DNA of 64,000 nt, from positions 3,199 through 67,198 of the forward strand of contig JALRBS010000118.1 in NCBI GenBank assembly GCA_023262325.1. Direction: 5' to 3'. Source of the stretch: Ilumatobacteraceae bacterium (GTDB lineage: Bacteria > Actinomycetota > Acidimicrobiia > Acidimicrobiales > Ilumatobacteraceae). The position numbers were made by a program, and so were the translations under genes. The notes beneath the pieces were generated by a model that did not search any database, had not been told where the DNA came from, and was given only the letters and a program-made list of their open reading frames with translations. How positions within the stretch are numbered: the stretch's first letter is position 1; every line of letters starts with the position of its first letter. Shown here one piece after another: positions 11,509-34,029 of the stretch.

Positions 11509-14500
11509 ATGCAGCCTTCAGTTCTTAGACGCGGTCTCTATGACCCCCGTTTCGAGCATGACTCGTGTGGTGTGTCATTCGTTGCAAACCTGCGTGGAGT
11601 TCGCTCGCATGAGCTCGTTCGTACTGGTCTCTTGGCGCTCACAAATATGGAACATCGGGGCGCGACCGGGGCAGAACCCGATACCGGTGACGGTGCCGGC
11701 ATTCTTCTGCAGATCCCAGACGCGCTTTTTCGTTCCGTTGCAGGGTGTGAGCTTCCTGCAGTAGGGCAGTACGCCGCCGGAATCGCGTTTCTCTCCGCCG
11801 AGGCGACACGAGCCACATCTCAGCGTGCAGAGATCGAGCGGATTCTTCGTGAAGAAGGATTGGAAACGTTGGGATGGCGAGAAGTTCCGACTAATCCGGC
11901 GTCGCTCGGAGCGACGGCACGAGCGGCGATGCCGTCGTTCTGGCAACTCTTCTGCGCCTCCCTGGACCGACGCTCGGGTATTGCGCTCGACCGGATCACC
12001 TTCATCGCACGTAAACGGACTGAGCACGAACTCGACGGTGTCTACTTCCCGTCATTGTCGGCGCGAACAATCGTGTATAAGGGGATGCTCACGACCCCCC
12101 AACTCGCCGAATTCTTTCCTGATCTCACCGACACGCGAACAGAAAGCGCTCTGTTACTCGTCCACTCACGTTTCTCAACAAACACGTTCCCGTCGTGGCC
12201 GCTGGCACATCCATACCGATTCGTGGCGCATAACGGGGAGATCAACACCGTGCAGGGCAATCAGAACTGGATGCGAGCACGAGAGGCGCTCGCACAGAGC
12301 GAATTGCTTCCTGGGCTCGAACGAGCACTTCCGATCTGTACGCCAGGTGGGTCTGATACGGCTCGATTCGATGAAGTGCTCGAACTCCTTCACCTCGGTG
12401 GGAGGTCGATCGAACATGCCGTCTTGATGATGATTCCGGAGGCATGGGAGAACAACGACGAGATGGATCCGGATCGTCGAGATTTCTACCGTTTCCACGC
12501 TGCGCTGATGGAACCGTGGGATGGACCCGCGAGCGTCACCTTTACGGACGGCGAAGTGATTGGTGCCGTCCTCGACCGCAATGGACTTCGCCCGAGCCGA
12601 TACTGGGTGACCGACGATGACCTCGTCGTCATGGCGTCCGAAGTCGGGGTGATCGACCTGCCAGCCCACAAGATCGTCTCGAAAGGTCGACTGCAGCCGG
12701 GCCGCATGTTTCTCATCGACACCAACGAAGGTCGCATCGTCGATGACGAAGAAATCAAACAGCGCCTCGCCTCCGAGCGTCCGTACGGGGAGTGGCTCAA
12801 GGCAGGAATGGTCGAACTTCACGACCTGCCAGAGCGAGAGCACGCAGTGTTCAGCCACGACAGCGTGCGTCGCCGCCAGCAGATGTTTGGCTACACGCAC
12901 GAAGAACTCAAGGTGCTTCTTGCGCCAATGGCGGCGAAAGGCATCGAACCGATCGGATCGATGGGTACCGACACGCCACTTGCCGTGCTGTCAGATCGCC
13001 CACGTCTTCTCTTTGACTACTTCCAGCAGTTGTTTGCCCAAGTAACGAACCCTCCGCTCGACGCAATTCGTGAAGAGGTCGTCACCGCAGTGTCTTCCAC
13101 AATCGGTCCAGAGGCGAACTTGCTCTCGCCTGGCCCCGACAGTTGTCGACAACTTGTGTTGCCGTTCCCGATTATTGAAAACGACGAACTCGCAAAGATC
13201 ATGTTCGCTGCTGAAGAAGGCGGTCGACCGGAATTTCGATCGCACGTCGTTCGGGCGCTGTATCCGGTTGACGGTGGTGGTGATGCTCTCGAGCGTCGCC
13301 TCGAGCAAATCTTTGAAGAAGTGAGCACCGCGATCGCCGATGGCGCCCGCGTCATCGTGCTCTCAGACCGAAACGCCGACGCAACACTTGCCCCAATTCC
13401 TTCTTTGTTGACGACATCGGCAGTTCACCATCACTTGGTGCGCACTCAGCAGAGGACGATGGTCGGACTCGTTGTCGAATCGGGTGATGCCCGTGAGGTG
13501 CATCACATGGCACTCCTCATCGGATACGGGGCCGGCGCAGTGAATCCATATCTCGCGTTCGAATCCATCGAGGATCTCATCACCACCAGCATGCACGACC
13601 TCGGCGCGATTGATCCCGCCACGGCTATTCACAACTACGTGAAAGCATGCGGAAAAGGCGTGCTCAAGGTCATGTCCAAAATGGGAGTGTCGACCGTTGC
13701 GTCCTACACCGGCGCGCAGATCTTCGAGGCGATTGGTATCGGAGAGTCGCTGATCGACAAATACTTCACCGGCACCGTTAGTCGGCTCAGTGGTATCACG
13801 ATCAACGAGATCGCAGAAGCCGTAGCGATGCGTCACCGATCAGCGCATCCAACCCGACCGGAAGAGCGAGCACACCGACAGCTCGAACTCGGCGGTGAAT
13901 ACCAATGGCGACGCGAGGGTGAGCACCATCTCTTCAACCCCGAGACTGTGTTCAAGTTGCAACACGCGACCCGCGCGAAGCGATGGGACATCTTCAAGGA
14001 GTACACGCAACTCGTCGATGATCAGTCAACGCGTCTCGCGACGTTGCGTGGTCTCTTCCGATTTGCGGATAATCGTTTGCCAATTTCAATTGACGAGGTT
14101 GAGGCCGCCTCGGTCATTATGAAGCGCTTCTCAACCGGCGCGATGTCGTATGGATCAATTTCTGCAGAAGCTCACGAGACGCTTGCGATTGCGATGAATT
14201 CGATTGGTGCGAAGTCGAACACCGGCGAAGGTGGGGAAGACGCCGACCGACTCCACGACCCGGCCCGACGTTCATCGATTAAGCAGGTCGCATCGGGACG
14301 TTTCGGCGTGACCTCTGAGTACCTCACGAATGCGGACGATCTGCAAATCAAGATGGCTCAGGGTGCGAAGCCCGGCGAGGGTGGACAGTTGCCAGGACAC
14401 AAGGTGTATCCGTGGGTAGCGAAGACGCGGCACTCGACCCCTGGAGTGGGCCTGATAAGTCCGCCGCCACACCATGACATCTACTCAATCGAGGACCTCA

Positions 14501-16041: not shown

Positions 16042-17485
16042 AGCAACCGGATTCCTTCAGTGGAGTCGACAACTTCCAGAACGGCGACCAGTTCCCGTGC
16101 GTTTGAAGGACTGGAAAGAGGTCTATGAGGACTTTCCGGCGGAGTCGGTGCGAACACAGGCAGGTCGTTGCATGGACTGCGGCAGTCCGTTCTGCAACAA
16201 CGGATGTCCGCTTGGCAATCTCATTCCAGACTGGAATGACCTCGTCTATCGAGATCTCTGGCGCCAAGCGATCGAGCGTCTGCACGCGACGAATAACTTT
16301 CCGGAGTTCACCGGGCGGCTTTGCCCTGCGCCATGCGAATCCGCGTGTGTCGTGGGCATCAACCAGCCTGCGGTGGCGATTAAGCAGGTTGAAGTTGAAA
16401 TTGTTGATCGCGCCTTCGAAGAAGGCTGGATCGTTCCGCAGGTACCAACAGTGAAAACCGGTCGCCGAGTTGCGGTGATCGGGTCGGGTCCCGCCGGACT
16501 CGCCGCGGCGCAGCAACTCACTCGTGCGGGACACGACGTTGTCGTGCTCGAGCGGGCTGACCGTATCGGTGGTCTCCTCCGGTATGGAATTCCTGAGTTC
16601 AAAATGGAGAAGCGCCACATTGACCGTCGGCTCGAACAGATGCAGGCGGAGGGCACTGAATTTCGAACAAACGCGATCGTCGGGGACAACATCGACATCG
16701 AGGTTCTTCGAGCCTCGCATGACGCAGTGGTGCTTGCGTGCGGCGCAACGGCGTGGCGGGACCTACCCATCCCGGGTCGGGAACTTCGCAACATTCACCA
16801 AGCGATGGAATATCTTCCGCTCGCGAATCGGGTGCAACTCGGCGACATCGAGCAATCGGCAATCGATGTGCATGGAGGGCACGTCGTCATTATCGGTGGA
16901 GGAGACACCGGCGCTGACTGTCTTGGTACGGCCTTACGACAAGGTGCCGCCTCGGTGACACAACTTGAAATCATGCCCCGACCACCCGAAGAGCGCTCTG
17001 CGGGAAACCCGTGGCCTCAGTACGCCATGATTTATCGAGTGTCGTCTGCACACGAGGAAGGCGGCGATCGGGTGTACAGCGTTAACACGGATCGTTTTCT
17101 CGATGACGGGGAGGGCAACGTTCGTGCGTTGCTCATTCATGAGGTTGAGATGATCGATGGTCGATTCGTCAAGGTCGAAGGCACCGATCGAGAGATTCCC
17201 GCCGACTACGTCTTTCTCGCGATGGGCTTCGTAGGTCCGGAAAAGGGCTCATGGCTCGACGAACTCGGTGTGCAACTCGACGATCGTGGAAACGTTGCCC
17301 GCGATGCCAACTACATGTCGTCGCAACCGGGCGTGTTTGTGGCTGGCGACATGGGGCGAGGCCAGAGCCTCATTGTGTGGGCGATTGCCGAAGGTCGCTC
17401 GGCAGCCGCCGGAGTGGACTCGTTCCTCATGGGCGAAACACGGCTGCCGAGACCGGTTGCGCCAACAGACCGACCGCTTATGTGA
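16034..17485 (+). CDS. gltD: glutamate synthase small subunit (NADPH)
   Basis: 483-aa ORF with an Fe-S motif CMDCGSPFC...GCPLGN and dinucleotide folds [14 protein letters not shown] and [13 protein letters not shown]. Confidence 0.95.
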
Positions 17486-17537
17486 GTGCTGTTGTCGCCA
17501 GTGTGAACCATGCTGTCGGTGACCTCGCGGAACCGAA

Positions 17538-17543
17538 TACGAT
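17538..17543 (+). promoter_or_regulatory. -10 element TACGAT, 6 nt upstream of ATG 17550 (leaderless-type)
   Basis: tacgat agagat atg. Confidence 0.5.
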
Positions 17544-17549
17544 AGAGAT

Positions 17550-18137
17550 ATGTCGCCGAAAGTTGTGTTCGCCGCTGCAGCGTTGCTGACAGTCGGAATA
17601 TCAGCGACAGGGTGTTCTGGCGGAGTCTCCTCGTCGGCGGCAACGGTGTCGCCGATTGAGCCGACGTCGTATGTCGTGAAGGAACTCGTCACGACGACGA
17701 CAACTATTGCTCCAACGACGACAACGACGTTGCCTGGCCAGCTTGGTGAGCCGTACATGCACACAATCGTGAAGAACGACAACCCTTCGTACCTCGCCGA
17801 TGTCTACAGCATCACTCTTGAGACGCTCAATGACGCGAATCGGACCAATCCTGATTACGGCGCATTTCCGATCGGTGGAACCGTCATCATTCCCGCTGGA
17901 GCGATCATGCCCAATGCTGGTGTCGTGGTGAGCACGAACAGCGACGGCACACAGTCTGCAACCGGAACGAATTGCAGCGTCGTTGAGCACACCATCGTCG
18001 CTGGAGACAATCCAACTGTTGTCGCCAACCAGTATTCGGTCACGCTCGAAGATCTGGCTCGAGCGAATGCGACCAACGCGACCTATCTCAGCTTCCTGCT
18101 CGGTGGCACCCTCATCATTCCGGTCGGCGACTGCTAA
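17550..18137 (+). CDS. LysM-domain lipoprotein (two LysM repeats)
   Basis: 195-aa ORF with a signal peptide and lipobox (LTVGISATGC), a Thr-rich linker, and two LysM repeats (HTIVKNDNPSYLADVYSITLETLNDAN..., HTIVAGDNPTVVANQYSVTLEDLARAN...). Confidence 0.85.
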   Translation: MSPKVVFAAAALLTVGISATGCSGGVSSSAATVSPIEPTSYVVKELVTTTTTIAPTTTTTLPGQLGEPYMHTIVKNDNPSYLADVYSITLETLNDANRTNPDYGAFPIGGTVIIPAGAIMPNAGVVVSTNSDGTQSATGTNCSVVEHTIVAGDNPTVVANQYSVTLEDLARANATNATYLSFLLGGTLIIPVGDC

Positions 18138-18153
18138 CGCCGGTTGTCACAAA

Positions 18154-19173
18154 CTACGAATGATCTCTCGAACCGAGATCGGGCCATGTCCGTTTCGGAC
18201 GTGAATTCCTGCCGCTCACCTCAGAGTTGCGACGCTCGGTAAGCGCCCACTTTCGTCGCCAGCTCGTCGTCGCGGGACCTCGGAGCGGATTCGTCTGGTC
18301 AGCACTGAAACGGCGAGCCGCCGACCAGAAGTCCGAGACGGATTCTTCGGCGAGACGTGCGACTGCCGATTCGATGCGGGCGTTGTATCGACGCGTGTTT
18401 TCATCCGAAACGGGCTGCAGTGGTTCGCCAAAGATGACTCGAGTTCGCCCGGGTCGCGGTTTGCGCATTCCCTTACCAAAGATTGCGCCAGTTCCTTCGA
18501 TGTGGACCGGGACAATCATTGTGCCTGTGCGCGATGAAAGATACGCAGCACCGCCCTTAAATGCCTGTGACCATCCGTCAGGCGATCGTCCGCCCTCCGG
18601 GTAGATGAGAAGACTCCGCCCGTCGTCGATGAGTTCACGAAACTGATCCGACGACTGTCGGCCTGTGGATTCTCGATCGATTGGAATTGCGTTGAGTGCA
18701 AGCGCAGAGAACACCGCTTTCCATCGTCGGTCAAAGAAGTAGTCAGCGGCTGCTGCCACGACAAGATCTTGTCGCCATACATGTGGAATTGCCTGGATCA
18801 TGACAGCGGTATCGAGATGGCTGTGGTGATCTGGAGCAAAGATCAAGGGTGGCGGGTCATCAAGCCGTGCGAGGTCTGCGAGTCGGTCAAGGCCATGAAC
18901 TTCGGGACGTGCGAGCACGCCAGTGAGCAGGCGCATCGGTCCAGCCGTCACGATCCCTCGAACCACCGACGCAACAGGGCGCCGAGCCCATTCTGTAGCG
19001 AAATTTGCTCCAAGGGTGTCGGGCTCTTCGGGCACGACGACACCACGTGGCACGGTCGGCGACCGCCATGGAAATCCAAATTTCGCCAACGGTTTTGCAA
19101 CGGAGCGAATTCCGCGTTCGACCGTTCCCGCAAGACGCTGCGCTCGGCGAGTGATTGCGACTCGTTTGCTCAT
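18154..19173 (-). CDS. lysophospholipid / 1-acyl-sn-glycerol-3-phosphate acyltransferase family protein (PlsC-like)
   Basis: 339-aa ORF with an HX4D motif (HHSHLD) and IYPEGGRSPDG. Its ATG shares one nt with the upstream gene's TAA stop (19173). Confidence 0.8.
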   Translation of the reverse strand: MSKRVAITRRAQRLAGTVERGIRSVAKPLAKFGFPWRSPTVPRGVVVPEEPDTLGANFATEWARRPVASVVRGIVTAGPMRLLTGVLARPEVHGLDRLADLARLDDPPPLIFAPDHHSHLDTAVMIQAIPHVWRQDLVVAAAADYFFDRRWKAVFSALALNAIPIDRESTGRQSSDQFRELIDDGRSLLIYPEGGRSPDGWSQAFKGGAAYLSSRTGTMIVPVHIEGTGAIFGKGMRKPRPGRTRVIFGEPLQPVSDENTRRYNARIESAVARLAEESVSDFWSAARRFSADQTNPLRGPATTSWRRKWALTERRNSEVSGRNSRPKRTWPDLGSRDHS

Positions 19174-20759
19174 TACTTCACATCGGCGACGAGTACCGAG
19201 GGGACGTGGAGGTGGGTGATCGTGGGGGAGCGACCGACAACATCACTTGCCAGTTCGAACGCGTCGTCGAGGGTCGAGGCCGGGGTGAATCCCATTCGGC
19301 GCACTGCCACTGGATCTCCACCGACGATGATGACTCTTCCGGCCCATTGCTGGCCGTGAGCACCCCAATACCAGGCGTAGAACGGGTGTACGCCGTGATA
19401 CGCGTTTCCGGTTCGGTAGAGGTGTCGGTACCACTCGTCCTCGGCGTATCGCTTTTCCCACTTCTCCGACATGACAACAGGGTCGGTGGTGTCAGCGAGA
19501 ACTTCATCAAAAAAGTCGATGTAACTCGGATGATGCACGGGATGGAAATCGCGGTAGGTCGGGTGCGTCATGATGACGACGCCTCCTTCGCGAACCAACG
19601 GTTTGTTGCGATACATGTTGAACATGTACCCAAGACCCATACACATGACGAGGATCGGATTCATGATCGACTCGGGGTTGTACGGACTGATGAACGGAAC
19701 TCCGAGGGTGAGAATGTCGGTTTGACCTTCGACTTCGACAAGGTGTTGACGGTAGACGTCATCCAGAGTTCGCTCATGAACTGATTCGGTGAACCCCGCG
19801 TGAATACCGGTCATCGCATACGGCGCTTCGATGCCGTGGAAAATCTTGCGTGCTGCCCGGCGTGGCAGGCGATTCAGGGTTTTCGATGTCGCAAGAAATG
19901 TTGCCCGATCGCGAGCCGTCCATTCCCATTCTCGTTTGGAGAGAAAATCGAAGGGTGATGGAAATGCGTCAGTGTTGATTGTGGTCTCAATTTGAAAGAT
20001 CTTTGGTCCGTGATCTCGAAGCACCTTTCCGAGTCGCCAGATCGAGTGGTGCAGCGCCGAGTGGTGACGGTCCATGAGGCTTCGCGTATTTCGTAATGAC
20101 TCGGGATTGTGATGGTGGCTGAGACAGCGGTACGACGCAACGCCGGTGACGAGCGATTTCCAGCCGCCATCCATCGCAACCTGGTTGACATTCGCGTACA
20201 CCACTAGGTCGGATTCGGCGACACGGCGATTAATTTCAAGCACTTCTCCGTGGTCGGTTGTTCCGAGCACCGTGAGATTCTCGGGATCCTCAGCATCGTG
20301 CTGGTAGAGGGTTCCCGCAGGAGCAAACGCATCGTAAATTCGACTGCCAAGCACATGACGCAATTCGTATTCGTGCATGCGTCGGTGCAGACCGAGCGCC
20401 GCAATGATGTGGACATCATCGACACCAGCTTCTGCGGCGAGGTTGAGCACGGCCTCAATGACTCGCTGGCGCGAGTCCGGACGTCTCATCTTTGGCAATG
20501 AGAGGCTCGCGTCGTCGAAGCAGATTGTTAACTTCATATTCGGCACGAGCAGCGCCCGAAGCGGTTCCATGTCGATCGGGTTGTCGAGCGCATGGCGAAT
20601 TGCGCCACCGACGTCGCTGATTCCGGGAAATGGTTCAGCCGGATAGATCACTCGGCTCCGGTCGGATGGAAGACGTTCAAGACTGAACTTCTCTCCATGC
20701 CAAAAGAGCATCGGGGGAGTCGAACGGTCGACATCGAGTACGAATCCTGGGCGTGGCAT
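19173..20759 (-). CDS. LarA-like (DUF2088 / lactate racemase N-terminal domain) protein, function unknown
   Basis: 528-aa ORF. The N-terminal half resembles LarA-type proteins (KLTICFDDASLSLP, IIAALGLHRRM, DLVVYANVNQVAMDGGWKSLVTG, SHHHNP). The start and stop codons each overlap a neighbour by 1 nt. Confidence 0.6.
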   Translation of the reverse strand: MPRPGFVLDVDRSTPPMLFWHGEKFSLERLPSDRSRVIYPAEPFPGISDVGGAIRHALDNPIDMEPLRALLVPNMKLTICFDDASLSLPKMRRPDSRQRVIEAVLNLAAEAGVDDVHIIAALGLHRRMHEYELRHVLGSRIYDAFAPAGTLYQHDAEDPENLTVLGTTDHGEVLEINRRVAESDLVVYANVNQVAMDGGWKSLVTGVASYRCLSHHHNPESLRNTRSLMDRHHSALHHSIWRLGKVLRDHGPKIFQIETTINTDAFPSPFDFLSKREWEWTARDRATFLATSKTLNRLPRRAARKIFHGIEAPYAMTGIHAGFTESVHERTLDDVYRQHLVEVEGQTDILTLGVPFISPYNPESIMNPILVMCMGLGYMFNMYRNKPLVREGGVVIMTHPTYRDFHPVHHPSYIDFFDEVLADTTDPVVMSEKWEKRYAEDEWYRHLYRTGNAYHGVHPFYAWYWGAHGQQWAGRVIIVGGDPVAVRRMGFTPASTLDDAFELASDVVGRSPTITHLHVPSVLVADVK

Positions 20760-21955
20760 CAGTGCGTACCTCTCATATCAAAAGCGATTTTGATTGCTCC
20801 CCGCCGACCCGCTGATGCGGCGTGGGCAAGGGCTTGGACATGGTCCTCAAGGGGATAGGTCGCCGAGACGAGACGCTCGGCGCCGATGTGTCGTGCGAGT
20901 TGCATTGCGAGGTCGAATGTTCGAACGTCCTTGCCGTCAACGTGTTCCGTGCCGTAGGTGTAGGAACCAAGCAACGCGATTTCCCGATGCCAGAGCCCGG
21001 TGAGGTCGAGGCGAACATCGCCGGGCAACCCGAGAAGCACGACGGCTCCTCTCGGGCGAGTCACCTCGATGGCCTGGCGAACTGACGACGCGTCACCAAT
21101 CGCGTCAATGGTCGCATGAGATCCCGATGACAGGTGGCTGCCGATCCGGTGTGAACCAGAGAGCCGACGAACGGCACGGGGGAGTTCGTCGCCAGACGCA
21201 AGGACGTCTGCGCCGAATCCCCTTGCGAGACGCATCTGTTGGGGGTAACGAGCGGAGGACACGATTCGTGCGTTCGGAACGGCTGCGCGCAGCGCCGCGA
21301 TCGCACCAAGACCCATCGTTCCCGCTCCAAGCACTACGAATATTGGTGACTCCGTGTCGCCGAGGTGTCGGTTCTCATGGTGGTTCGCGATGAGCGCCGC
21401 GTGAACCGAACCGGCGAGTGGTTCGATGAGCAGCGCTGTCTCATCGCTCATGTCGGCGGGAACGTCATGTAGTTGCGATTCGTGCGCCCAAAACCACGGC
21501 GCCCAACCGCCACCGGTCGAGCAGCAGAACCCTGTTTGGATACCCGGTTCGAGCGGTCCAGTCGCGAGGTGGGCGTAGTCATCGCCGTCGGCAGGCGCGG
21601 CACCTTCCCAGGGTGGCTTCGCTCCTCTCGCAGCGTGGCCGAGCACCGGTTCAATAACGACGCGGCGTCCCGAGTCGGTCTCGCCGACGATCTCGTGGCC
21701 TGGAACAAACGGAAATGACACAAAGTCTTCGAAGTAGGTCGACGCGTGTCCATCGATAAGCGCAAGGTCGGAACCGCAGATTCCACACATACGCGTGGTG
21801 ACTTTGTTCCACCCTTCACCGGATGGTCGCGGCGGATCGTCAATTGATCGATACTCGACCGGAGCAACTCTGACGCTCGTCGAGGGGCTTGTCACCGACA
21901 ACAAACGTGCCATGCCGAATCGGCGCACGCTGTGGTGGACCTGAAGCGCCTTCAT
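20759..21955 (-). CDS. zinc-dependent alcohol dehydrogenase (MDR) family protein
   Basis: 398-aa ORF with CGICGSD and GHE catalytic-zinc motifs and a GAGTMGLG Rossmann fold. I could not find the usual structural-zinc Cys cluster. An ATGA overlap joins it to the upstream gene. Confidence 0.8.
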   Translation of the reverse strand: MKALQVHHSVRRFGMARLLSVTSPSTSVRVAPVEYRSIDDPPRPSGEGWNKVTTRMCGICGSDLALIDGHASTYFEDFVSFPFVPGHEIVGETDSGRRVVIEPVLGHAARGAKPPWEGAAPADGDDYAHLATGPLEPGIQTGFCCSTGGGWAPWFWAHESQLHDVPADMSDETALLIEPLAGSVHAALIANHHENRHLGDTESPIFVVLGAGTMGLGAIAALRAAVPNARIVSSARYPQQMRLARGFGADVLASGDELPRAVRRLSGSHRIGSHLSSGSHATIDAIGDASSVRQAIEVTRPRGAVVLLGLPGDVRLDLTGLWHREIALLGSYTYGTEHVDGKDVRTFDLAMQLARHIGAERLVSATYPLEDHVQALAHAASAGRRGAIKIAFDMRGTH

Positions 21956-24300
21956 GAGAATGACCTTCGTCGTTCACGTTCTGACAGCAGTGGCCCTATC
22001 GGCAGAAGCGATCTGGGTCCTCCGCTTGCCTTTGACCAATTCTCAACAAGCCAGCCTCGCTTGCGGGCGATCGCTGCAAGTCGAGTTTCGGGGTTCACGG
22101 CGACCGGGAATCCCACGGCCTCGAAAAGTGGTAAGTCGGACGAGGAATCGGCGTACGCAACACACTCCTCAAGTTTGAAACCTTCGGCATCGCAATAGTC
22201 GGCGAGAATTTGTGCTCGTGCCTCGCCAGTTGGCGGGACGCTCGTCATCTCTCCAGTGAGGGTGCCATCGGAACGTACCGTCATTTCTGCAGCGACGATT
22301 TCGTCAAACAGTGGTTTGAGTCCTGCCACGTTGAACGAGAGTGCGCCGGTGATGAGCACCGTTCGATGCCCAGCCGCGCGATGTTCACGAACCCTCCGAA
22401 TACCTTCAGGGAAACACTTCGAAATAATGAGCCCGGTGAGCATTGCGTCGACGTCAGTATCGATCTGTTCAATCGGTGCTCCGTCGTAGCGGCGATAGAA
22501 GTGCCGGAGAAAGTCTGTTCGATCGCGACGGTCCATGCGCAGCAGTCCTGGAGCCTCGGTGAGGGTGCGTGCGACGTATCGCAGGCGTTCGCGGCTGTCG
22601 AGTCGACGTGTCGCGAGCCAGGAGTAGCTTTCGACAACGTTAGATGCAATCAGCGTGTTCTCAAGGTCAAAGGCAGCAACATGACGCTTTGAATCGAGGA
22701 CTTGGTTCCGCAGCCGCGTTGAGCGATCGGCGGTCTTGACCTTGCCAGGCGTGCTCTTCACGCGGGCGTGTTCGACGATTGAGGGAAGGTGGATGTTGTG
22801 GACGTAATGCGCCCAGTCGACAACGCGGGGGTCGAAGGTGAAGGACTGCTGGTCTTCGACGGAAAGGCGATTCCAGATGTCCATCAGGTTGTCGACCTGG
22901 TAAATCGCCTCGCATTCGGTGTACAGCCCGTACAACTCGACGTACTCGAGCGCACGCTCAACCTCGAGACGTCTCGTCTCGAGGGTTGCTGCGAATTCCG
23001 CTTGCTTTCCACGAAGCGGCAACATCTGCATCACCGACTCGGCGCGCGTGATTGCTGACTTCGCTCGACCAAGTTGACTCTGCACACGGCCCCGACCCGG
23101 AAATCGCCACTCGGGTACAAGGATGGGCTGACCCTCGTTGTCGTACAGCGGATGCTCGGTGAACCAACTGCTGACGTGATTGACAAGCGTGCGATATTTG
23201 AGCGGGTTGATGCCCCCCGAAGCCACCTGGGTAATGAACGGCGCGTCCTTCGAACCTTGCGCTGCCACCGCAACGATGGCGGCAACGACAAGGTCAACTG
23301 GAATGACATCGATGGTGCCCTCGGGGACGCCGGGGAACTCTTTGAGTAACCCGCGCGCGTACGAAATGATGACCGGCTCCGCCATGCGGAACCCCCGAAT
23401 CCAACCGGGTCGAGGTTCCGCCCACGCAGATTCAATAATTGATGGTCGAACGATTGAGACGGGAATATCGCCCTTAGTCTCGGTGAGCGCCTGTTCACCG
23501 AGTGCCTTGGTGAATGCGTACGCATCTGGCCAGCCCACCGACGCTGCTCGGGATCGCCCGGCGGTGACAAGTTCGTCACGAACCCAACGTTCTCGAATCT
23601 GTTCCGTCTTCGCCGCTAGTGCAGGTGCGCCGGCGGCACCAAGTTCCGCGCGGGCCCGTTTTCTGAACTCGTTCAGACGCGCCGGTGTTCGTGAAGCGGC
23701 CTCGGTATCACCATGAAGTCGGCGGGCTGAATGCACTTCATCTCGCCAATTCAGCCCGATCGCAAACGGGCCCTCCGAGACGAGCTCCTCCGGCGCGGTT
23801 CCGCGACGATTACCTGCGACGTAGCAGGTCGACACCGCTACAAGGTGTGGGGCAATGTTGAGATCGTGACAAAGCTCGGCGAGACGCACGGGTCCGAGCA
23901 AGTTGATTTCGACAGCCTGGTCGAGTGGAGAATCGAACGACACAGCCGCGGCGGAGTGAATAATCGTGTCGACCGAAGAAAAAATTGACCGGCTATCCGC
24001 ATCAAGGCCAAGTCCATCCGTACTCACATCTCCCGCAATGGTGGTAATGCGTCGTGCGCACATCTCCTCAAATGACTCTTCAGACGAGCTGTAGATGTCG
24101 CGCAACCTGTCGAAGGCATCGTTGGCGAGTATTTCGCGTTGGGTTCGACGAGCGGCAGAGGTTCGGCGTCCGTCGCGCACAATCAGAATGAGTTCGCAAT
24201 CCGGGACAGCACGCAGTAGTCGTTCCACCAGCGCGGTGCCAACGAACCCCGTGGCGCCCGTGATGGCGATTCGCTTACCGGCGAGTGACGAAGAAATCAC
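21952..24300 (-). CDS. fusion protein: fatty acyl-CoA/thioester reductase-like extended SDR (N-terminal) plus HAD-IB hydrolase domain (C-terminal)
   Basis: 782-aa ORF with a GTG start. ITGATGFVG at residues 13-21 and YAFTK at 261-265 fit a male-sterility/FAR-type NAD-binding domain. The HAD motifs are FDLENT (residues 544-549), VLITGA (648-653) and YADSSSDLP (716-724). Confidence 0.7.
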   Translation of the reverse strand: MISSSLAGKRIAITGATGFVGTALVERLLRAVPDCELILIVRDGRRTSAARRTQREILANDAFDRLRDIYSSSEESFEEMCARRITTIAGDVSTDGLGLDADSRSIFSSVDTIIHSAAAVSFDSPLDQAVEINLLGPVRLAELCHDLNIAPHLVAVSTCYVAGNRRGTAPEELVSEGPFAIGLNWRDEVHSARRLHGDTEAASRTPARLNEFRKRARAELGAAGAPALAAKTEQIRERWVRDELVTAGRSRAASVGWPDAYAFTKALGEQALTETKGDIPVSIVRPSIIESAWAEPRPGWIRGFRMAEPVIISYARGLLKEFPGVPEGTIDVIPVDLVVAAIVAVAAQGSKDAPFITQVASGGINPLKYRTLVNHVSSWFTEHPLYDNEGQPILVPEWRFPGRGRVQSQLGRAKSAITRAESVMQMLPLRGKQAEFAATLETRRLEVERALEYVELYGLYTECEAIYQVDNLMDIWNRLSVEDQQSFTFDPRVVDWAHYVHNIHLPSIVEHARVKSTPGKVKTADRSTRLRNQVLDSKRHVAAFDLENTLIASNVVESYSWLATRRLDSRERLRYVARTLTEAPGLLRMDRRDRTDFLRHFYRRYDGAPIEQIDTDVDAMLTGLIISKCFPEGIRRVREHRAAGHRTVLITGALSFNVAGLKPLFDEIVAAEMTVRSDGTLTGEMTSVPPTGEARAQILADYCDAEGFKLEECVAYADSSSDLPLFEAVGFPVAVNPETRLAAIARKRGWLVENWSKASGGPRSLLPIGPLLSERERRRSFS

Positions 24301-24307
24301 AGCCCAC

Positions 24308-24313
24308 TTTCTA
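24308..24313 (-). promoter_or_regulatory. -10-like TAGAAA, 7 nt upstream of GTG 24300
   Basis: The minus strand reads TAGAAA GTGGGCT GTG. The match is imperfect because the last base is A. Confidence 0.35.
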
Positions 24314-24321
24314 TCACGTAT

Positions 24322-24346
24322 CTACCAAGTGGTAGACAACTGGTAG
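24322..24346. promoter_or_regulatory. candidate TetR operator: CTACCA-AG-TGGTAG dyad plus a third TGGTAG half-site
   Basis: ctaccaagtggtag at 24322-24335 and tggtag again at 24341-24346. The element is centred in the 55-bp divergent region between the TetR gene and the reductase-HAD gene. Confidence 0.55.
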
Positions 24347-24349
24347 AAA
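24344..24349 (+). promoter_or_regulatory. -10-like TAGAAA, 6 nt upstream of ATG 24356
   Basis: tagaaa atcggt atg. The match is imperfect because the last base is A. Confidence 0.35.
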
Positions 24350-24355
24350 ATCGGT

Positions 24356-24949
24356 ATGACTGCAGATTCAACCCGACGACGGATCCTTGAGGAGTCGCTT
24401 GACCTCTTCGGCACGCGAGGTGTCGATGGCGTCTCGCTCGACGACATCGCAGAGTCCGTCGGTGTTCGAAAGCAGAGCATCCTCTATTGGTTCAATTCCA
24501 AGGCGACGCTGGTTGATGCGGTACTCGACCATGCCGCAGACGAACTTCTCACGGTTGTCGAGGCCGCAGTGCGCTCTCGGGGAGATGACCCGTTGGCGAG
24601 GGTCGATGCGGTTGTGTGTGCGGTGTTTCGGCCCGTTGTTCGACGACCTGCGCTTCTTGGTCTCGTCCGCGAAGTGGGACGGCTCGACCCCCGACACCTC
24701 AATCATCTACGTCAGCGCCTCGACCCCGTTATTCAGGCGTGTCGGTGTTATTTCGAAAGCGAAATGCATCGGGGTCGACTACGTCGCTGTGATCCCGCAC
24801 TACTCGCCGGAATGCTCTATGCGACGGTGGCTGGCGTTGGCACCGAGCCCGTGGTGCTCGAATCCCTCGGTTGGACAGCAGACACTGCCGGACTCAGACA
24901 ACTTCGTCGCGAGCTTCGTCGCTATGTGCGTGCAACGCTCGCTCCTTGA
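24356..24949 (+). CDS. TetR/AcrR family transcriptional regulator
   Basis: 197-aa ORF with an N-terminal HTH (RRRILEESLDLFGTRGVDGVSLDDIAESVGVRKQSILYWFNSK). Confidence 0.9.
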   Translation: MTADSTRRRILEESLDLFGTRGVDGVSLDDIAESVGVRKQSILYWFNSKATLVDAVLDHAADELLTVVEAAVRSRGDDPLARVDAVVCAVFRPVVRRPALLGLVREVGRLDPRHLNHLRQRLDPVIQACRCYFESEMHRGRLRRCDPALLAGMLYATVAGVGTEPVVLESLGWTADTAGLRQLRRELRRYVRATLAP

Positions 24950-24961
24950 TGACGCCGAACC

Positions 24962-24993
24962 CTCGACCTCCTAATAACTCGACGTCCTAATAA
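24962..24993. repeat. tandem direct repeat, 2 x 16 bp (CTCGACNTCCTAATAA)
   Basis: ctcgacctcctaataa at 24962-24977 is followed directly by ctcgacgtcctaataa at 24978-24993, with one mismatch. The second copy contains the ddl stop codon (24987-24989). Confidence 0.85.
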
Positions 24994-26090
24994 TCAGTGC
25001 GGCGGCGTGCCAATTCGTGACGTTCGACTGCAAGCGTGATGAGGCGCTCAATGAGCTCCGCATAGGTAAGTCCGCTCGCCAGTACGAGCTTTGGATACAT
25101 CGAAATCGGAGTGAAGCCGGGCATCGTATTCATCTCGTTGAAAAGCACTCGCTCGGTGTCTTCTTCGTAAAAGAAGTCGCAACGACCGAGACCGGAGCAG
25201 CCAAGTGTGCGAAAAATCCGAATCGCAAGATCTCGCGTGACCGCAGCAACGTGGTGAGGAATGTCTGCTGGTATCGCCGTGCGTGATCGACCGTCGAGGT
25301 ATTTGTCGGCGTACGAATAAAACACGTCTGCCGGGATAATTTCGCCGGGTCCAAAGACTGCTGGGCTTTCATTTCCCAGCACAGCGATCTCGAGCTCTCG
25401 CCCGTTGATCGCCTCTTCGACAAGGACAGTCGAGTCGTAGGTCAAGGCGTGCTGCAGGGCCGTGCCCAACTCTTCTTCGCTTGCCACTCGAGAGACTCCG
25501 ACTGAGGAACCCATATTTGCTGGTTTCACAAAACATGGAAAGCCGAATGATTGTCGAATGTCGTGAGCGATGGCATCGGCAGTTCGATCTTCGAGTTCGT
25601 GCACACGGAGCCATCGCGGCACCTCGATACCTGCCTCTCCGACGAGTCGCTTTGCGACCGCCTTGTCCATCGATACCGCCGATCCAAGAACACCGGAACC
25701 GACATAGGCAATGTCGAGCAACTCAAGAAGTCCTTGAACTGTTCCGTCCTCACCCATTGGGCCGTGAAGGAGGGGGAGGACGACGAGATCAGACGACCTT
25801 GAACGTTCTTGAACGAGTAACTCCCACGGGTTTACGACATCGCCGACAACGGACATTTTGGTCGGTTTCTCATCTTCGGATTCGAGAGCGAACGGGTCCT
25901 CAACAACCGACCAGATGCCATCACGAGAAATTCCCACGGCGAGTGTGTCGAAAAGTTCCCTGTCGATCGCCTCAACAACGTGACGGGCAGTCGTGCAACT
26001 CACGTCGTGCTCGGCAGACTGGCCGCCAAAGAGCACGACAACGCGGGTGCGACGCTTCTTCACACGATTCACGGTACTGTCCGATGTCAT
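24987..26090 (-). CDS. ddl: D-alanine--D-alanine ligase
   Basis: The track ORF runs to 26366, but that extension is antisense to murF and has no Ddl similarity. Ddl similarity starts at RVVVLFGGQSAEHDVS. Candidate starts are ATG 26090, ATG 26099 or GTG 26072. Confidence 0.9.
   Translation of the reverse strand: MTSDSTVNRVKKRRTRVVVLFGGQSAEHDVSCTTARHVVEAIDRELFDTLAVGISRDGIWSVVEDPFALESEDEKPTKMSVVGDVVNPWELLVQERSRSSDLVVLPLLHGPMGEDGTVQGLLELLDIAYVGSGVLGSAVSMDKAVAKRLVGEAGIEVPRWLRVHELEDRTADAIAHDIRQSFGFPCFVKPANMGSSVGVSRVASEEELGTALQHALTYDSTVLVEEAINGRELEIAVLGNESPAVFGPGEIIPADVFYSYADKYLDGRSRTAIPADIPHHVAAVTRDLAIRIFRTLGCSGLGRCDFFYEEDTERVLFNEMNTMPGFTPISMYPKLVLASGLTYAELIERLITLAVERHELARRRTDY
26075..26080 (+). 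promoter_or_regulatory. -10 element TACTGT, 8 nt upstream of murF ATG 26089
   Basis: tactgt ccgatgtc atg. The hexamer lies inside or next to the first codons of ddl on the other strand. Confidence 0.35.
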
Positions 26091-27408
26091 GCGGCTCATG
26101 GCATCACAGGTTGCGGCGGCGACCGGTGGCCTGTTGATCGGTCCGGACGTTGAAATCGTGGGCGTCGGTTTTGACTCGCGTGAACGCCTTGATGGAGCGA
26201 TGTTTGTTGCCGTCGTTGGTGAACGTGACGGCCATGACTTCGTCGATACGGCAGTTGAGGGTGGGGCGCGGGCAGCACTCGTGTCGAAGACTGACCGCGC
26301 ATACGGAACGACGGTCATCGCAGTGGATAACACGGTCGATGCATTCGGCGCGCTTGCGGCAGACATGCACAGAGCACATTTCGCTCACGCCCATACCGTC
26401 GGTGTTACTGGCAGCGTGGGCAAGACAACCACAAAAAATTTCATCGCAGGTTGCCTGCCGTCAAAGCGGGTATGGGCGAATCGATCAAGTTTCAACAACG
26501 ACCAGGGTCTGCCGTACACGGTGCTCAATGCACCGGCGGGTACTGAAGTTCTCGTGCTTGAAATGGGTATGCGAGGTTTCGGCGAAATTCAACGGCTCTG
26601 CGACATCGCACCGCCCACTATTTCCGTTGTCACACGAATTGGCGAAGCGCACACCGAACGGCTCGGAGGCATTGAAGGGGTCGCACGAGCAAAATCTGAA
26701 ATTGTCGATGCGCTTCGATCAGATGGGGTTGCGGTACTTCAGGCGAACGATCGGTTCACGAAGTCGATGGCGGCGATGTGTCGTGGTTCGGTTGTCACTT
26801 TTGGGGATGACGGAGACGTGTTTGCGCGGGAGATCAGGGTTGATGATTGCGGGCGCGCTTCGTTTGTGGCGTGCAGTCCATGGGGGGAATCGTCCGTCAC
26901 GCTGTCAATTCCGGGCACACACAACGTGTCGAATGCACTGGCTGCCCTTGCAGTCGCAGGGTCCGTCGGAGAATCGATCGCCGATGCTGCCGGAGCCCTC
27001 GGCGCCGTCGCGGCTGGCGACCATCGCATGGTCCTCCATGAATTCCCACGGCGTGCATTGCTCATTGATGATTGCTACAACGCGAATCCAACGTCGATGG
27101 CTGCTGCGTTCGATACAGCACTGTCAATGAATCGGCGTCGCACGATTGCCGTGTGCGGTCTGATGGCGGAAGTTGACGACGAGGTGAAGGCACACCATTC
27201 GGTTGCACAATTGGCGACGAGTAGCGGGATCGAACTGTGGCCAGCAGACACGAGTCTTTACGGATTGCCTCCGATGGAAGATCTTGCGGCTCGAGTCTGC
27301 GAGGTACTCATCGGCGGTGATGTGTCGGTAGTGGTCAAGGGCAGTCGAGTCGCCGGTCTCGAAACGCTCGTGGAGCGCGTCATCGGCTCACTCAGTGAAG
27401 CCGGCTAG
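26089..27408 (+). CDS. murF: UDP-N-acetylmuramoyl-tripeptide--D-alanyl-D-alanine ligase
   Basis: The track ORF starts at 25993. MurF similarity starts at MRLMASQVAAATGG (ATG 26089, alternative 26098). Mur ligase P-loop GVTGSVGKTTTK, plus DDCYNANP. Confidence 0.9.
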   Translation: MRLMASQVAAATGGLLIGPDVEIVGVGFDSRERLDGAMFVAVVGERDGHDFVDTAVEGGARAALVSKTDRAYGTTVIAVDNTVDAFGALAADMHRAHFAHAHTVGVTGSVGKTTTKNFIAGCLPSKRVWANRSSFNNDQGLPYTVLNAPAGTEVLVLEMGMRGFGEIQRLCDIAPPTISVVTRIGEAHTERLGGIEGVARAKSEIVDALRSDGVAVLQANDRFTKSMAAMCRGSVVTFGDDGDVFAREIRVDDCGRASFVACSPWGESSVTLSIPGTHNVSNALAALAVAGSVGESIADAAGALGAVAAGDHRMVLHEFPRRALLIDDCYNANPTSMAAAFDTALSMNRRRTIAVCGLMAEVDDEVKAHHSVAQLATSSGIELWPADTSLYGLPPMEDLAARVCEVLIGGDVSVVVKGSRVAGLETLVERVIGSLSEAG

Positions 27409-32957: not shown

Positions 32958-33473
32958 ATGCGTAGCCCTCATGAGGTGCTCGGTGTCCGCGAGAACGCCT
33001 CACGACGCGAAATTCGCGAGGCGTACCGTCGGCGCGCAAGGTTGCTTCACCCTGATAGCGGTGGAACGGGTCGCGTCGATGAGATGGTTGAACTCAATGA
33101 CGCATACTCCGAGCTGTCTCGGGGACACGTTCGCATCACCGCTGCTCCCACATCGCCATCGCCCGTCGTCTCGGTGAATGCGCCCGCTCGATTCCCGTGG
33201 CGGTTCGTTGTGTCGTGTGCGATCATCGGCTCGGCTGTTGTCGTTGCCGGCTCCCTCATTGTCTCGCCCCGGGCAGCGGAGGCGCCAGACGGCGTCATCA
33301 CTGTCGGTTCGTGTGTGGAGATCTTCGACAATCTCACTGTCGGTGAAGTTGAGTGCGGGGGCACCGGTCAACTCGTGGTTCGGCAATTTGTTCCACTCGA
33401 TGCGGGGTGTGCTGATGGATCAGTTGGTTACCTCGATCGCCAGGGCATGGGTCGCGCTTGTCTCGACGAGTAG
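32958..33473 (+). CDS. J-domain (DnaJ-like) membrane protein with Cys-containing C-terminal domain
   Basis: 171-aa ORF. It has a J domain with an HPD motif (HEVLGVRENASRREIREAYRRRARLLHPD), one TM segment (FVVSCAIIGSAVVVAGSLIV) and a 4-Cys C-terminal region. Confidence 0.7.
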   Translation: MRSPHEVLGVRENASRREIREAYRRRARLLHPDSGGTGRVDEMVELNDAYSELSRGHVRITAAPTSPSPVVSVNAPARFPWRFVVSCAIIGSAVVVAGSLIVSPRAAEAPDGVITVGSCVEIFDNLTVGEVECGGTGQLVVRQFVPLDAGCADGSVGYLDRQGMGRACLDE

Positions 33474-33871: not shown

Positions 33872-33909
33872 GTGGTGCGGGAATGGACGCTGGTAGCCTG
33901 ACTGTTCGA

Positions 33910-33982
33910 GGGCGATTAGCTCAGTTGGAAGAGCGCCACGTTCACACCGTGGAGGTCATGGGATCGAGGCCCGTATCGCCCA
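33910..33982 (+). tRNA. tRNA-Val (anticodon CAC)
   Basis: Hand-folded cloverleaf: 7-bp acceptor stem (GGGCGAT/ATCGCCC), D-arm GCTC/GAGC, anticodon stem CCACG/CGTGG with loop TTCACAC, 5-nt variable loop, T-arm ATGGG/CCCGT and discriminator A. No CCA is encoded. Confidence 0.9.
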
Positions 33983-34017
33983 CTCGAGGATCTCTCGGTC
34001 GTGACCATTCGTGCGGT

Positions 34018-34023: not shown

Positions 34024-34029
34024 GACGAT

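Follow-up and report, generated by a model that had tools for sequence, protein, structure and literature searches.

The question raised by this locus is what a homologue of LarA does in an operon otherwise composed of lipid genes. We analysed the window, a 64-kb stretch of DNA from an Ilumatobacteraceae bacterium, and arrived at the following reading, to which we give a probability of about 0.55: the operon is an elb-type alkylglycerolipid cassette, in which the LarA homologue would act on a glycerol-phosphate backbone through hidden-redox chemistry at a nickel-pincer cofactor. The features concerned are:

21952 to 24300, minus strand: FAR-HAD fusion, 782 aa, GTG start
20759 to 21955, minus strand: MDR zinc dehydrogenase, 398 aa (ADH_N and ADH_zinc_N)
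19173 to 20759, minus strand: LarA homologue, 528 aa, assigned to the LarAH14/15/16 family
18154 to 19173, minus strand: PlsC/AGPAT-type acyltransferase, 339 aa (PF01553)
24356 to 24949, plus strand: divergent TetR-family regulator, 197 aa (TetR_N)
24321 to 24336, no strand: palindromic operator TCTACCA-N2-TGGTAGA, seen in the sequence
24341 to 24347, no strand: extra half-site TGGTAGA adjoining the tetR start, of putative role
24308 to 24313, minus strand: putative -10-like hexamer TAGAAA

The four minus-strand genes overlap at the junctions ATGA, TGATG and TAATG along the operon. Their coordinates are exactly those given in an earlier note made from the DNA alone, and the translational coupling it proposed is confirmed, as is its TetR gating: the 55-nt divergent gap contains a perfect dyad, TCTACCA-ag-TGGTAGA. 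A strict pattern for this operator is matched in 39 of 49 related intergenic regions, with close variants in most of the others, and extra half-sites also occur in a few relatives. The regulator (TetR_N, 9e-11 in a profile search) is weakly similar to FasR, RutR and AcrR, and would let go of its operator on binding a lipid or acyl-CoA-type ligand. The TAGAAA hexamer is preceded by TGA, as in an extended -10 element, and lies 7 nt upstream of the GTG start. A TAnA[AC][ACT] hexamer ends 6-10 nt ahead of the start codon in 47 of 68 sequences, and in many loci the right arm of the operator is itself this hexamer. The position of the -10-like hexamer suggests that the operon transcript is probably leaderless; a generic sigma-70 promoter scan gave nothing exceeding chance.

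Profile searches with Pfam and NCBIfam upheld the four domain assignments made previously. The 782-aa protein joins an N-terminal fatty acyl-CoA/thioester reductase (FAR; NAD_binding_4, 3e-59) to a C-terminal HAD-IB phosphohydrolase (HAD/TIGR01490); a match to the Sterile domain scores 34.7 bits, slightly below the Pfam cutoff of 35.4 bits. It carries GATGFVG at 15, YAFTK at 261 and the HAD motif I DLENT at 545, and residues 3-513 match the solved fatty acyl-CoA reductase 7eoz with E = 4e-68. Motif I reads DLENT in Acidimicrobiia, and the phosphatase activity is not certain because Glu replaces the general-acid Asp. The MDR dehydrogenase has CGICGSD at 57, GHE at 86 and EPL at 178 and lacks the four-Cys structural-zinc loop, as had been noted. 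Among solved structures it comes closest to ketose reductase 1e3j, sorbitol dehydrogenase 1pl6 and idonate 5-dehydrogenase 6dkh, which classes it as a predicted polyol-dehydrogenase/ketose-reductase type and an accessory member of the cassette. The acyltransferase (PF01553, 8e-17; HHSHLD at 116, YPEGGR at 191) matches Thermotoga maritima PlsC 5kym with E = 7e-11.

We then compared the locus with 80 Acidimicrobiia genomes and 80 metagenome loci from other Actinomycetota. The cassette is near-invariant across these 160 actinobacterial loci, in the same gene order, and this bears out the proposal that the LarA-like gene is conserved together with the lipid genes; the arrangement far exceeds chance expectation. 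In Acidimicrobiia, PlsC is present in 72/72 loci, HAD in 60/60, FAR in 59/60 and ADH in 59/71; the corresponding counts for the metagenome loci are 60/60, 38/38, 38/38 and 60/61. The PlsC gene lies immediately downstream of the LarA homologue in all 72 Acidimicrobiia and all 60 metagenome loci. In Parafrankia, Nocardioides, Actinopolymorpha and Egicoccus the order is kept amid unrelated flanking genes. The regulator is less constant, being the divergent partner in 49 of 58 Acidimicrobiia loci versus 6 of 33 loci of other Actinomycetota. This distribution bears on the idea that the cassette is catabolic or remodelling, salvaging or degrading exogenous lyso-, ether- or hydroxy-lipids, with the substrate inducing it through TetR. 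Divergent TetR-gated operons are indeed typical of inducible catabolism or efflux, breakdown could make use of the polyol-type ADH and the phosphatase, and other phospholipid-synthesis genes are absent from the neighbourhood. However, the four enzymes are conserved outside Acidimicrobiia while TetR is not, the FAR and AGPAT domains are biosynthetic, and so is the homologous elb operon described below. We consider a catabolic role very improbable.

The 528-aa protein matches Lar_N (2e-36) and the NCBIfam model NF052592 (852.8 bits, cutoff 740), which identifies it at the profile level as a member of the LarAH14/15/16 family. Its AlphaFold model (pLDDT 94.4) has the LarA fold, with the single-His enzyme 9q3k as best structural match (TM 0.85). 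D83, H125, K201 and H217 are equivalent to D72, H108, K184 and H200 of LarA and are invariant in 346 homologues from three clades. Thus the tether Lys, the Ni-binding His and one catalytic His expected of a LarA active site are present, but the second catalytic His is not: the loop bearing LarA H174 is deleted. The position of LarA R75 is occupied by L86, and by L, I, V or M throughout the 346 homologues. Without a second catalytic His or a carboxylate-binding Arg, the protein is unlikely to racemise or epimerise a 2-hydroxy acid, the activity suggested earlier. Desguin et al. (2020, PMC7583248) assayed a family representative, the Frankia LarAH14, with seven 2-hydroxy acids and detected no activity.

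Use of the nickel-pincer nucleotide (NPN) by the LarA homologue is nonetheless likely in our view. The alternative is that the protein works here without NPN, as a scaffold, a lipid-binding subunit or with another cofactor, leaving the chemistry to the other three enzymes. It draws on the Frankia LarAH14, inactive although NPN was supplied, on Frankia group 16 paralogues that lack the tether Lys and retain the PlsC and HAD context (Desguin et al.), and on the cofactor genes: no larB-, larC- or larE-like gene occurs in the whole 64-kb window, as previously stated, and none turned up in the 80 Acidimicrobiia loci either, so that cofactor supply in Acidimicrobiia is uncertain. Yet larE, larB and larC adjoin the cassette, in varying arrangements, in six loci of other Actinomycetota (L088, L089, L096, L126, L127 and L145), all three exceeding the NCBIfam cutoffs in L088. 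The invariance of K201, H217, H125 and D83 would also be hard to account for without the cofactor, and the closest solved relative holds NPN covalently through the equivalent Lys. We judge a role without NPN to be quite unlikely.

The surroundings of this family have a precedent. Table S1 of Desguin et al. 2020 (PMC7583248) already lists PlsC, HAD, ADH and thioester-reductase neighbours (COG0204, COG0560, COG1063 and COG3320) for LarAH groups 14-16; in group 14 the first three reach 88% each and COG3320 50%. In Myxococcus xanthus, elbABCDE corresponds to MXAN_1531 to MXAN_1527 (PMC13012113), elbD being MXAN_1528 (PMC11980068), and MXAN_1529 is classed as LarAH group 15 in the PMC7583248 dataset. 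MXAN_1529 is elbC, the elb gene without assigned function, and its sequence places it in the LarAH14/15/16 family. The domains of the locus read Epimerase, HAD, Lar_N, NAD_binding_4-AMP-binding-PP-binding-Acyltransferase and Epimerase. ElbC is 49% identical to our LarA homologue over the full length and passes the same NCBIfam equivalog (848.8 vs 852.8 bits). Residues 2-570 of the fusion align with ElbD 9-602 (28% identity over 639 aa, E = 1e-48), residues 542-750 with ElbB (34%, E = 2e-31), and the window PlsC with the ElbD acyltransferase domain, 1265-1436 (31%, E = 7e-15). We are therefore nearly certain that the operon is a compact relative of elb. Table S1 and elbC leave unsupported the claim that the system is undescribed and that a LarA homologue within a lipid gene set is unprecedented; its novelty is weakened by the existence of a related cluster that has been characterised and whose product is known. 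We found no literature joining the LarAH14/15/16 family to the elb operon, and this link is the new part of the finding.

Alkyl ether lipids of M. xanthus require elbD; fatty aldehyde was detected there but fatty alcohol was not, and the ether-forming steps were described as unknown (PMC9131029). The ElbC match suggests that a nickel-pincer enzyme acts in an unsolved step of bacterial ether-lipid synthesis; a need for ElbC itself is putative, since the sources consulted report no elbC mutant. The locus is best read as a TetR-repressed cassette, the actinobacterial counterpart of elbB-elbE, minus the acyl-activating ACS and ACP modules. In the order of steps that we infer, the FAR domain would first yield a fatty aldehyde or alcohol by reducing an acyl thioester. 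The LarA homologue, with its lysine-tethered NPN, would borrow a hydride from C2 of a glycerol-phosphate or DHAP-type backbone and later give it back, and the transient C2 ketone would let the alkyl chain join at C1. The ketose-reductase-type Zn-ADH, where present, would set the C2 alcohol, as the SDR ElbE might in myxobacteria. The PlsC-type enzyme would then acylate the backbone, and the HAD-IB domain would remove the phosphate to yield 1-O-alkyl(-acyl)glycerolipids. An ether lipid as the product is slightly favoured, while this particular hidden-redox etherification mechanism is tentative and, taken alone, rather doubtful. The pathway may differ from that of Elb, because ACS, ACP and an ElbE-type SDR are absent. 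It also counts against an ether-lipid product that we found none described from aerobic Actinomycetota with the cassette. The earlier, more general proposal of a glycerolipid derived from a fatty aldehyde or alcohol, with a backbone redox step, is supported.

The product could instead be a non-ether lipid (a wax-ester-like compound, a long-chain 1,2-diol or a hydroxy-acyl glycerolipid), the LarA homologue epimerising or isomerising a hydroxylated acyl chain or head group, as the earlier note had it. Wax-ester synthesis likewise pairs a FAR with an acyltransferase, and the FAR domain resembles standard alcohol-forming FARs: it scores 233 bits against the solved FAR (phmmer) and 175 bits against ElbD (blastp), and this apparent closeness to a generic FAR counts against the elb reading. 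The ADH belongs with the polyol dehydrogenases, a single-His LarA could perform a 1,2-hydride shift, for instance from a 2-hydroxy-aldehyde to a hydroxy-ketone, and no actinobacterial cassette has an assigned product. Against this, alkyl ether lipids are what is linked to elb, which alone among clusters combining this family with these modules has been studied genetically. The lost carboxylate-binding Arg and the inactive Frankia enzyme also argue against such an epimerase, the acyltransferase is PlsC/AGPAT-type rather than a wax synthase, and an HAD-IB phosphatase implies a phosphorylated backbone. A non-ether product thus seems improbable, and the alkylglycerolipid cassette is retained as the preferred reading.

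Among known systems, the Frankia LarAH14 (Franean1_4168, group 14) is 56% identical to the window protein and has the same family, signature residues and gene context, with no material difference; Desguin et al. left its function 'unknown' and did not connect it to ether lipids or ElbC (PMC7583248). Group 17 LarASp and LarABw (9q3k, 9q2u, 9q3j; Gatreddi et al. 2025), which give the best fold match, have the tether Lys, the Ni-binding His and a single catalytic His in common with it. In the LarASp substrate site, His115, Tyr307 and His401 correspond to H125, Y360 and H458 of the window protein, with conservation of 98% or more at each, and the group 17 substrate is likewise not a simple 2-hydroxy acid. 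However, sequence identity is only ~20-22%, group 17 has Asn for His174 where the window protein has lost the whole loop, it retains Lys at the Arg75 position where the window protein has Leu, and its genes have glycolytic and triose-phosphate neighbours (for LarASp, ones of triose and sugar phosphate metabolism) in place of lipid genes. LarA itself shares the fold and, presumably, hydride transfer through NPN; the window protein is ~100 residues longer, its family has Asn for Lys298 according to the Desguin table, and racemase activity was not detected for the family representative.

The elb operon (Lorenzen et al. 2014; MIBiG BGC0000871) shares the order HAD, LarAH, acyltransferase. It differs by its AMP-binding (ACS) and ACP domains and its ElbA/ElbE SDRs, which the window cassette lacks, and by a reductase fused to ACS-ACP-AT instead of HAD, whereas the MDR Zn-ADH inserted in most actinobacterial cassettes has no elb counterpart and a divergent TetR regulates the window cassette. 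The AGPS route of eukaryotes and myxobacteria (FAR, GNPAT, AGPS and acyl/alkyl-DHAP reductase) may be analogous, with its FAR, PlsC-superfamily acyltransferase, C2 ketone, C2 reductase and later phosphatase. Neither the window nor the cassette encodes an AGPS-type flavoenzyme; were the two routes indeed analogous, ether formation would fall to the LarA homologue.

An ORF call places the four minus-strand genes that the earlier note had described as a translationally coupled operon at exactly the coordinates read there, with a tetR gene diverging from them:

18154-19173, minus strand: PlsC-type acyltransferase, 339 aa
19173-20759, minus strand: LarAH, the LarA homologue, 528 aa
20759-21955, minus strand: zinc alcohol dehydrogenase (Zn-ADH), 398 aa
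21952-24300, minus strand: FAR-HAD fusion, 782 aa, GTG start
24356-24949, plus strand: TetR gene (TetR_N, 9e-11)

The junctions, read directly in the sequence, are ATGA, TGATG and TAATG, in agreement with translational coupling, and both the 55-nt gap to tetR and the dyad lying in it were verified. Every motif quoted for these proteins was located in the translations, and profile searches backed the FAR, HAD-IB, ADH, LarA and PlsC domain calls. The fusion matches NAD_binding_4 (3e-59) and exceeds the cutoff of HAD-IB TIGR01490, while its Sterile match (34.7 bits) falls slightly below Pfam's 35.4-bit cutoff; the solved fatty acyl-CoA reductase 7eoz aligns with its residues 3-513 (E = 4e-68). 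Zn-ADH matches ADH_N and ADH_zinc_N, LarAH matches Lar_N (2e-36) and PlsC matches Acyltransferase (8e-17). Zn-ADH is indeed devoid of the four-Cys structural-zinc loop, and its nearest solved relatives are ketose reductase and sorbitol, xylitol and idonate dehydrogenases, not fatty-aldehyde reductases. The initial observation is thus confirmed and its domain reading is correct. Motif I of the HAD domain (22666-22680) deserves attention: it reads DLENT, not DxDxT, in 68 of the 75 hits, those of the Acidimicrobiia fusions, a Glu taking the place of the second, general-acid Asp. The canonical DxDGT is retained in a few other hits and in ElbB, encoded by the ether-lipid operon elbABCDE of Myxococcus xanthus. 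Judging from this motif, the phosphatase chemistry of the Acidimicrobiia HAD domain may be altered, which is a caveat on any dephosphorylation role predicted for it.

The dyad between tetR and the fusion gene is perfect (TCTACCA-ag-TGGTAGA, 24321-24336) and is accompanied by a third half-site at 24341-24347. The strict pattern TCTACCA-N2-TGGTAGA occurs in 39 of 49 related intergenic regions. With a TetR_N regulator and a conserved predicted operator in the shared intergenic region, the locus has the organization of a putative TetR-repressed divergent operon. A TAGA(A/C)-type hexamer, which in many loci coincides with the right operator arm, ends 6-10 nt ahead of the start codon in 47 of 68 sequences; in the window this region is TGATAGAAA (24308-24316, minus strand), and the GTG follows at a distance of 7 nt. 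The transcript may thus be leaderless, with a -10 element that bound TetR would occlude or flank. A generic scan of 17400-25100 for sigma-70 promoters and terminators returned nothing above shuffled expectation.

Other genes of the window were also inspected. Convergent to the PlsC gene and 16 nt from its stop, the plus-strand gene at 17550-18137 encodes a protein that looks secreted and has a Thr-rich linker and two faint LysM-like repeats; it is probably unrelated to the cassette. On the minus strand at 24987-26366, the mechanical ORF of a D-Ala-D-Ala ligase (459 aa) overlaps the start of murF by about 370 nt; as the gene called in ENA encodes 361 aa, the true start is probably internal. The region 32958-37717 carries an ABC ATPase, a radical SAM protein (347 aa) and a GNAT/FR47 protein (323 aa) on the minus strand, and, on the opposite strand, a DnaJ-domain protein and four or five short ORFs that match no Pfam entry; it could be a small peptide-modification locus. 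After thrS and a HIT protein, the plus strand at 48422-51222 encodes a CDP-alcohol phosphatidyltransferase, a lipid A-type acyltransferase and a GT4 glycosyltransferase, the classic actinobacterial PI/PIM arrangement (pgsA1, PIM acyltransferase, pimA). Ordinary phospholipid genes are therefore located elsewhere and not beside the cassette.

LarAH scores 852.8 bits against NCBIfam NF052592 ('NPN-dependent hydroxyacid isomerase, LarAH14/15/16 family', NPN being the nickel-pincer nucleotide cofactor), for an equivalog cutoff of 740, and covers model positions 1-520 of 520. An identical protein is present on ENA metagenome contig ERZ27267664 k141_296427, and the nearest genome loci are 91-92% identical at LarAH. 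The window derives from an Acidimicrobiia member resembling Ilumatobacteraceae. Its AlphaFold model (pLDDT 94.4, pTM 0.92) shows the two-domain LarA fold, and the top 19 PDB matches of this model are all LarA family members. The best are the single-His structures 9q3k and 9q3j (TM 0.85; E = 3e-33 for 9q3k), canonical racemases ranking lower (TM 0.71-0.78).

Alignment with LarA of L. plantarum equates D83, H125, K201 and H217 of LarAH with D72, H108, K184 and H200. The NPN-tether Lys (K201), the Ni-ligand His (H217) and one of the two catalytic His sought by the earlier note are hence present; the second is missing, since the S173-H174-F175-F176 loop of LarA is deleted. Loss of this loop agrees with the signature table of Desguin et al. 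2020 (PMC7583248), which also gives Lys298 replaced by Asn, and the His174 equivalent is described as missing in groups 14 and 15 (Gatreddi et al. 2025, PMC12611868). The carboxylate-binding R75 of LarA becomes L86. Across 346 full-length homologues (Acidimicrobiia, other Actinomycetes, Myxococcota), D83, H125, K201 and H217 show no variation, and L, I, V or M always occupies the R75 position. In LarASp, which is encoded among genes of triose and sugar phosphate metabolism, the ligand lies near His115, His306, Tyr307 and His401; these map to H125, P359, Y360 and H458 of LarAH, and H125, Y360 and H458 are each at least 98% conserved in its homologues. The family comprises 397 clusters at 50% identity (E <= 1e-30). 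Three long or fused homologues were examined, and the fusions were set aside as functional hints. P0461, a LarAH C-terminus joined to an acyltransferase, lacks part of its N-terminus, and the same fusion could arise from a one-base error where the genes overlap by 1 nt. P0416 (947 aa), N-terminally extended and carrying a chlorophyll a/b-binding domain besides its ElbC-like Lar_N region (38% identical), is probably a eukaryotic gene-model artefact. P0417 (574 aa) has an N-terminal extension as well, and P0416 and P0417 may be eukaryotic (algal) homologues of the subfamily or gene-model fusions. The fusion check found no extra domains in the remaining long homologues.

The LarAH groups were defined by Desguin et al. 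2020, whose dataset includes a group 14 sequence of Ilumatobacter coccineum close to the window LarAH (PMC7583248). The group 14 context was tabulated in the same study (Table S1: COG0204, COG0560 and COG1063, 88% each; COG3320, 50%) and left uninterpreted, so that a LarA homologue beside lipid genes is not unprecedented, as had been supposed. Groups 14 and 15 are listed there as 'unknown function', and the LarAH14 of Frankia (56% identical to ours), purified and given the cofactor, was inactive on lactate, 2-hydroxyisovalerate, 2-hydroxyisocaproate, malate, 2-hydroxyglutarate, phenyllactate and gluconate, the seven substrates assayed (PMC7583248). On the strength of this inactivity, the deleted H174 loop and the Leu at Arg75, the canonical 2-hydroxy-acid racemase reading was rejected. 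In the Frankia group 16 paralogues FRAAL3757 and Francci3_2278 the NPN-tether K184 is replaced by G, one of them also being devoid of H108, while the PlsC and HAD context is retained at 100% (PMC7583248); they may be cofactor-independent derivatives in the same lipid setting. In June 2026 the reactions of the LarA family were still said to be limited to hydroxyacid racemisation and epimerisation (PMC13524815). On the distribution of lar genes, the supplements of PMC11770544 give LarA prevalence only.

The neighbourhood of LarAH was compared across Actinomycetota, as the earlier note had proposed. A genome scan with one genome per species gave at least 592 loci, of which 80, all from Acidimicrobiia (64-92% identity), were retained. 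Counting only loci with sufficient flank, PlsC lies directly downstream of LarAH in 72/72 of them, and HAD (60/60), FAR (59/60), ADH (59/71) and divergent TetR (49/58) accompany it. In 80 metagenome loci of other Actinomycetota, anchored on the Egicoccus LarAH (61-71% identity), the figures are PlsC 60/60, FAR 38/38, HAD 38/38, ADH 60/61 and TetR 6/33. LarAH is thus co-conserved with PlsC, FAR and HAD, whereas TetR is mostly a feature of Acidimicrobiia. Parafrankia, Nocardioides coralli, Actinopolymorpha alba and Egicoccus possess the four genes in identical order within unrelated flanks, so that the conservation reflects function and goes beyond inherited synteny. In 12 Acidimicrobiia lineages (loci L040-L042, L049, L051, L052, L067, L069, L075 and L077-L079) the ADH is absent and LarAH directly follows FAR-HAD, as in the elbB-elbC order. 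FAR-HAD, LarAH and PlsC make up the core of the cassette; ADH and TetR are lineage-variable. One ADH-less locus, L079, belongs to Candidatus Poriferisocius, whose name hints at a symbiont of sponges; these animals contain abundant ether lipids whose bacterial origin is uncertain (bioRxiv 10.64898/2026.06.23.733905).

Cofactor supply was addressed by tblastn with verified Egicoccus queries. None of the NPN biosynthesis genes larB, larC and larE was found in the 64-kb window, where their absence had already been noticed and a gene scan agrees, in the 80 Acidimicrobiia loci, or in the M. xanthus, Parafrankia and Nocardioides loci. In Egicoccus itself, the cassette continues on the same strand into overlapping larE, larB and larC genes, which pass the NCBIfam cutoffs (297.7 vs 150, 230.5 vs 175 and 127.7 vs 90, respectively). 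A second actinobacterial MAG (L089) carries larE (inverted), larB and larC directly after PlsC, and in four metagenome loci the three genes adjoin the cassette, upstream or downstream, in differing arrangements. Directly after larC, L089 also encodes a second PlsC-type acyltransferase (12540-13316). In total, larEBC abuts the cassette in 6 loci of other Actinomycetota among about 170 loci. By an informal estimate, a lone lar cluster in a multi-Mb genome would fall inside a locus of at most 20 kb with a probability well under 1%, and by that estimate six cases represent a strong enrichment.

The elb operon connects these data to lipids. Since elbABCDE corresponds to MXAN_1531 to MXAN_1527 (PMC13012113), elbD being MXAN_1528 (PMC11980068), the group 15 protein MXAN_1529 of the Desguin dataset (PMC7583248) is ElbC. 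ElbC passes NF052592 (848.8 bits) and is 49-50% identical to the window LarAH over the full length, almost as close as Frankia LarAH14. Group 15 is drawn from Myxococcota; its members lie near HAD, two NAD-epimerase-family genes and a FadD-type ligase, a setting similar to elbABCDE. These alignments and profile matches show that the orphan LarA subfamily and ElbC are one protein family. The legend in the 2026 PNAS paper gives elbC no assigned function (PMC13012113), and our literature search retrieved no paper containing both 'ether lipid' and 'lactate racemase'.

From its residues, LarAH would be able to hold NPN and abstract a hydride beside one general base, and would not have the features needed for stereocentre inversion and carboxylate binding. 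The simplest reading would be a hidden-redox step on a glycerol-phosphate or DHAP-type moiety. In one version, C2 of 1-acyl-G3P would be transiently oxidised to a ketone, the acyl group being then exchanged for a fatty alcohol in an AGPS-like manner and the hydride returned; dispensability of ADH in 12/71 loci fits this version. In the other, the hydride would be borrowed from C2 of G3P, the C1 hydroxyl would form a hemiacetal with a fatty aldehyde, and NPN-H would reduce the oxocarbenium to alkyl-DHAP, a separate reductase then reducing C2. This second version fits the detection in M. xanthus of fatty aldehyde and not of fatty alcohol (PMC9131029), and also the polyol/ketose type of the nearest solved ADH relatives. 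Backbone acylation would fall to PlsC and phosphate removal to HAD-IB. An AGPS-dependent route was rejected: the window has no AGPS-like gene, and no FAD_binding_4/FAD-oxidase match was found among the window genes scanned. We tentatively propose, with a probability of roughly 0.3, that ElbC/LarAH14 is the missing ether-bond-forming enzyme of an aerobic AGPS-independent pathway, acting through an NPN-dependent, redox-neutral 'borrowed hydride' etherification on glycerol-phosphate. The product of the cassette, the LarAH substrate and the supply of cofactor in this particular organism are putative.

Two puzzles would merge here into a single testable question: the substrate-less LarA groups 14 and 15, a large subfamily of 397 clusters, and the ether-forming chemistry of elb, in which elbC is still drawn as '?'. 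If our proposal is true, a LarA-family enzyme would for the first time catalyse something other than racemisation or epimerisation, and for the first time act on a substrate that is not a carboxylate. Myxobacterial ether-lipid and plasmalogen-precursor synthesis would then be nickel-dependent, and ether-lipid production would have gone unrecognised in hundreds of Actinomycetota species (Acidimicrobiia, Frankia, Nocardioides, Nitriliruptoria). Should the link hold, nickel-pincer chemistry would extend past 2-hydroxy acids, a membrane-lipid pathway would be predicted to depend on nickel, and abundant aquatic and soil Actinomycetota would become candidate sources of non-isoprenoid alkyl glycerol ethers. 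Such ethers serve as environmental biomarkers. A literature search gave no report of alkyl ether glycerolipids in organisms with the cassette. ElbD-based screens can miss it, as FAR-HAD is 28% identical to ElbD for a 30% identity filter (PMC11868695).

Compared with the M. xanthus locus (Epimerase / HAD (PF12710) / Lar_N / NAD_binding_4-Sterile-AMP-binding-PP-binding-Acyltransferase / Epimerase), the window clusters all ElbC, ElbB, FAR-like and AGPAT-like modules, with E-values from 0 to 7e-15. FAR-HAD residues 2-570 align with ElbD 9-602 (28%, E = 1e-48) and residues 542-750 with ElbB (34%, E = 2e-31), while PlsC residues 110-279 align with ElbD 1265-1436 (31%, E = 7e-15). Zn-ADH has no counterpart in elb; conversely, the ElbE-type SDR is absent from the cassette, the MDR Zn-ADH standing in its place in 59/71 and 60/61 loci. 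No ACS/ACP homologue adjoins the cassette in the window or in the 160 actinobacterial loci, distant ACS-like matches occurring only at the locus edge, 8-10 kb from LarAH, in 3 Acidimicrobiia loci. ADH-less loci have no adjacent ElbE/ElbA-type SDR or ACS/ACP as a substitute. The canonical elbB-C-D-E form is present in a Deltaproteobacteria MAG. The suggestion that the operon is an undescribed system is therefore upheld in part: family and neighbourhood were published, and a homologous operon was already genetically tied to alkyl ether lipids. What appears to be new is the assignment of elbC to the nickel-pincer LarA family, the compact, ADH-containing version of the elb cassette without ACS/ACP in Actinomycetota, and the physical linkage of an elb-type cassette to larEBC in several lineages.
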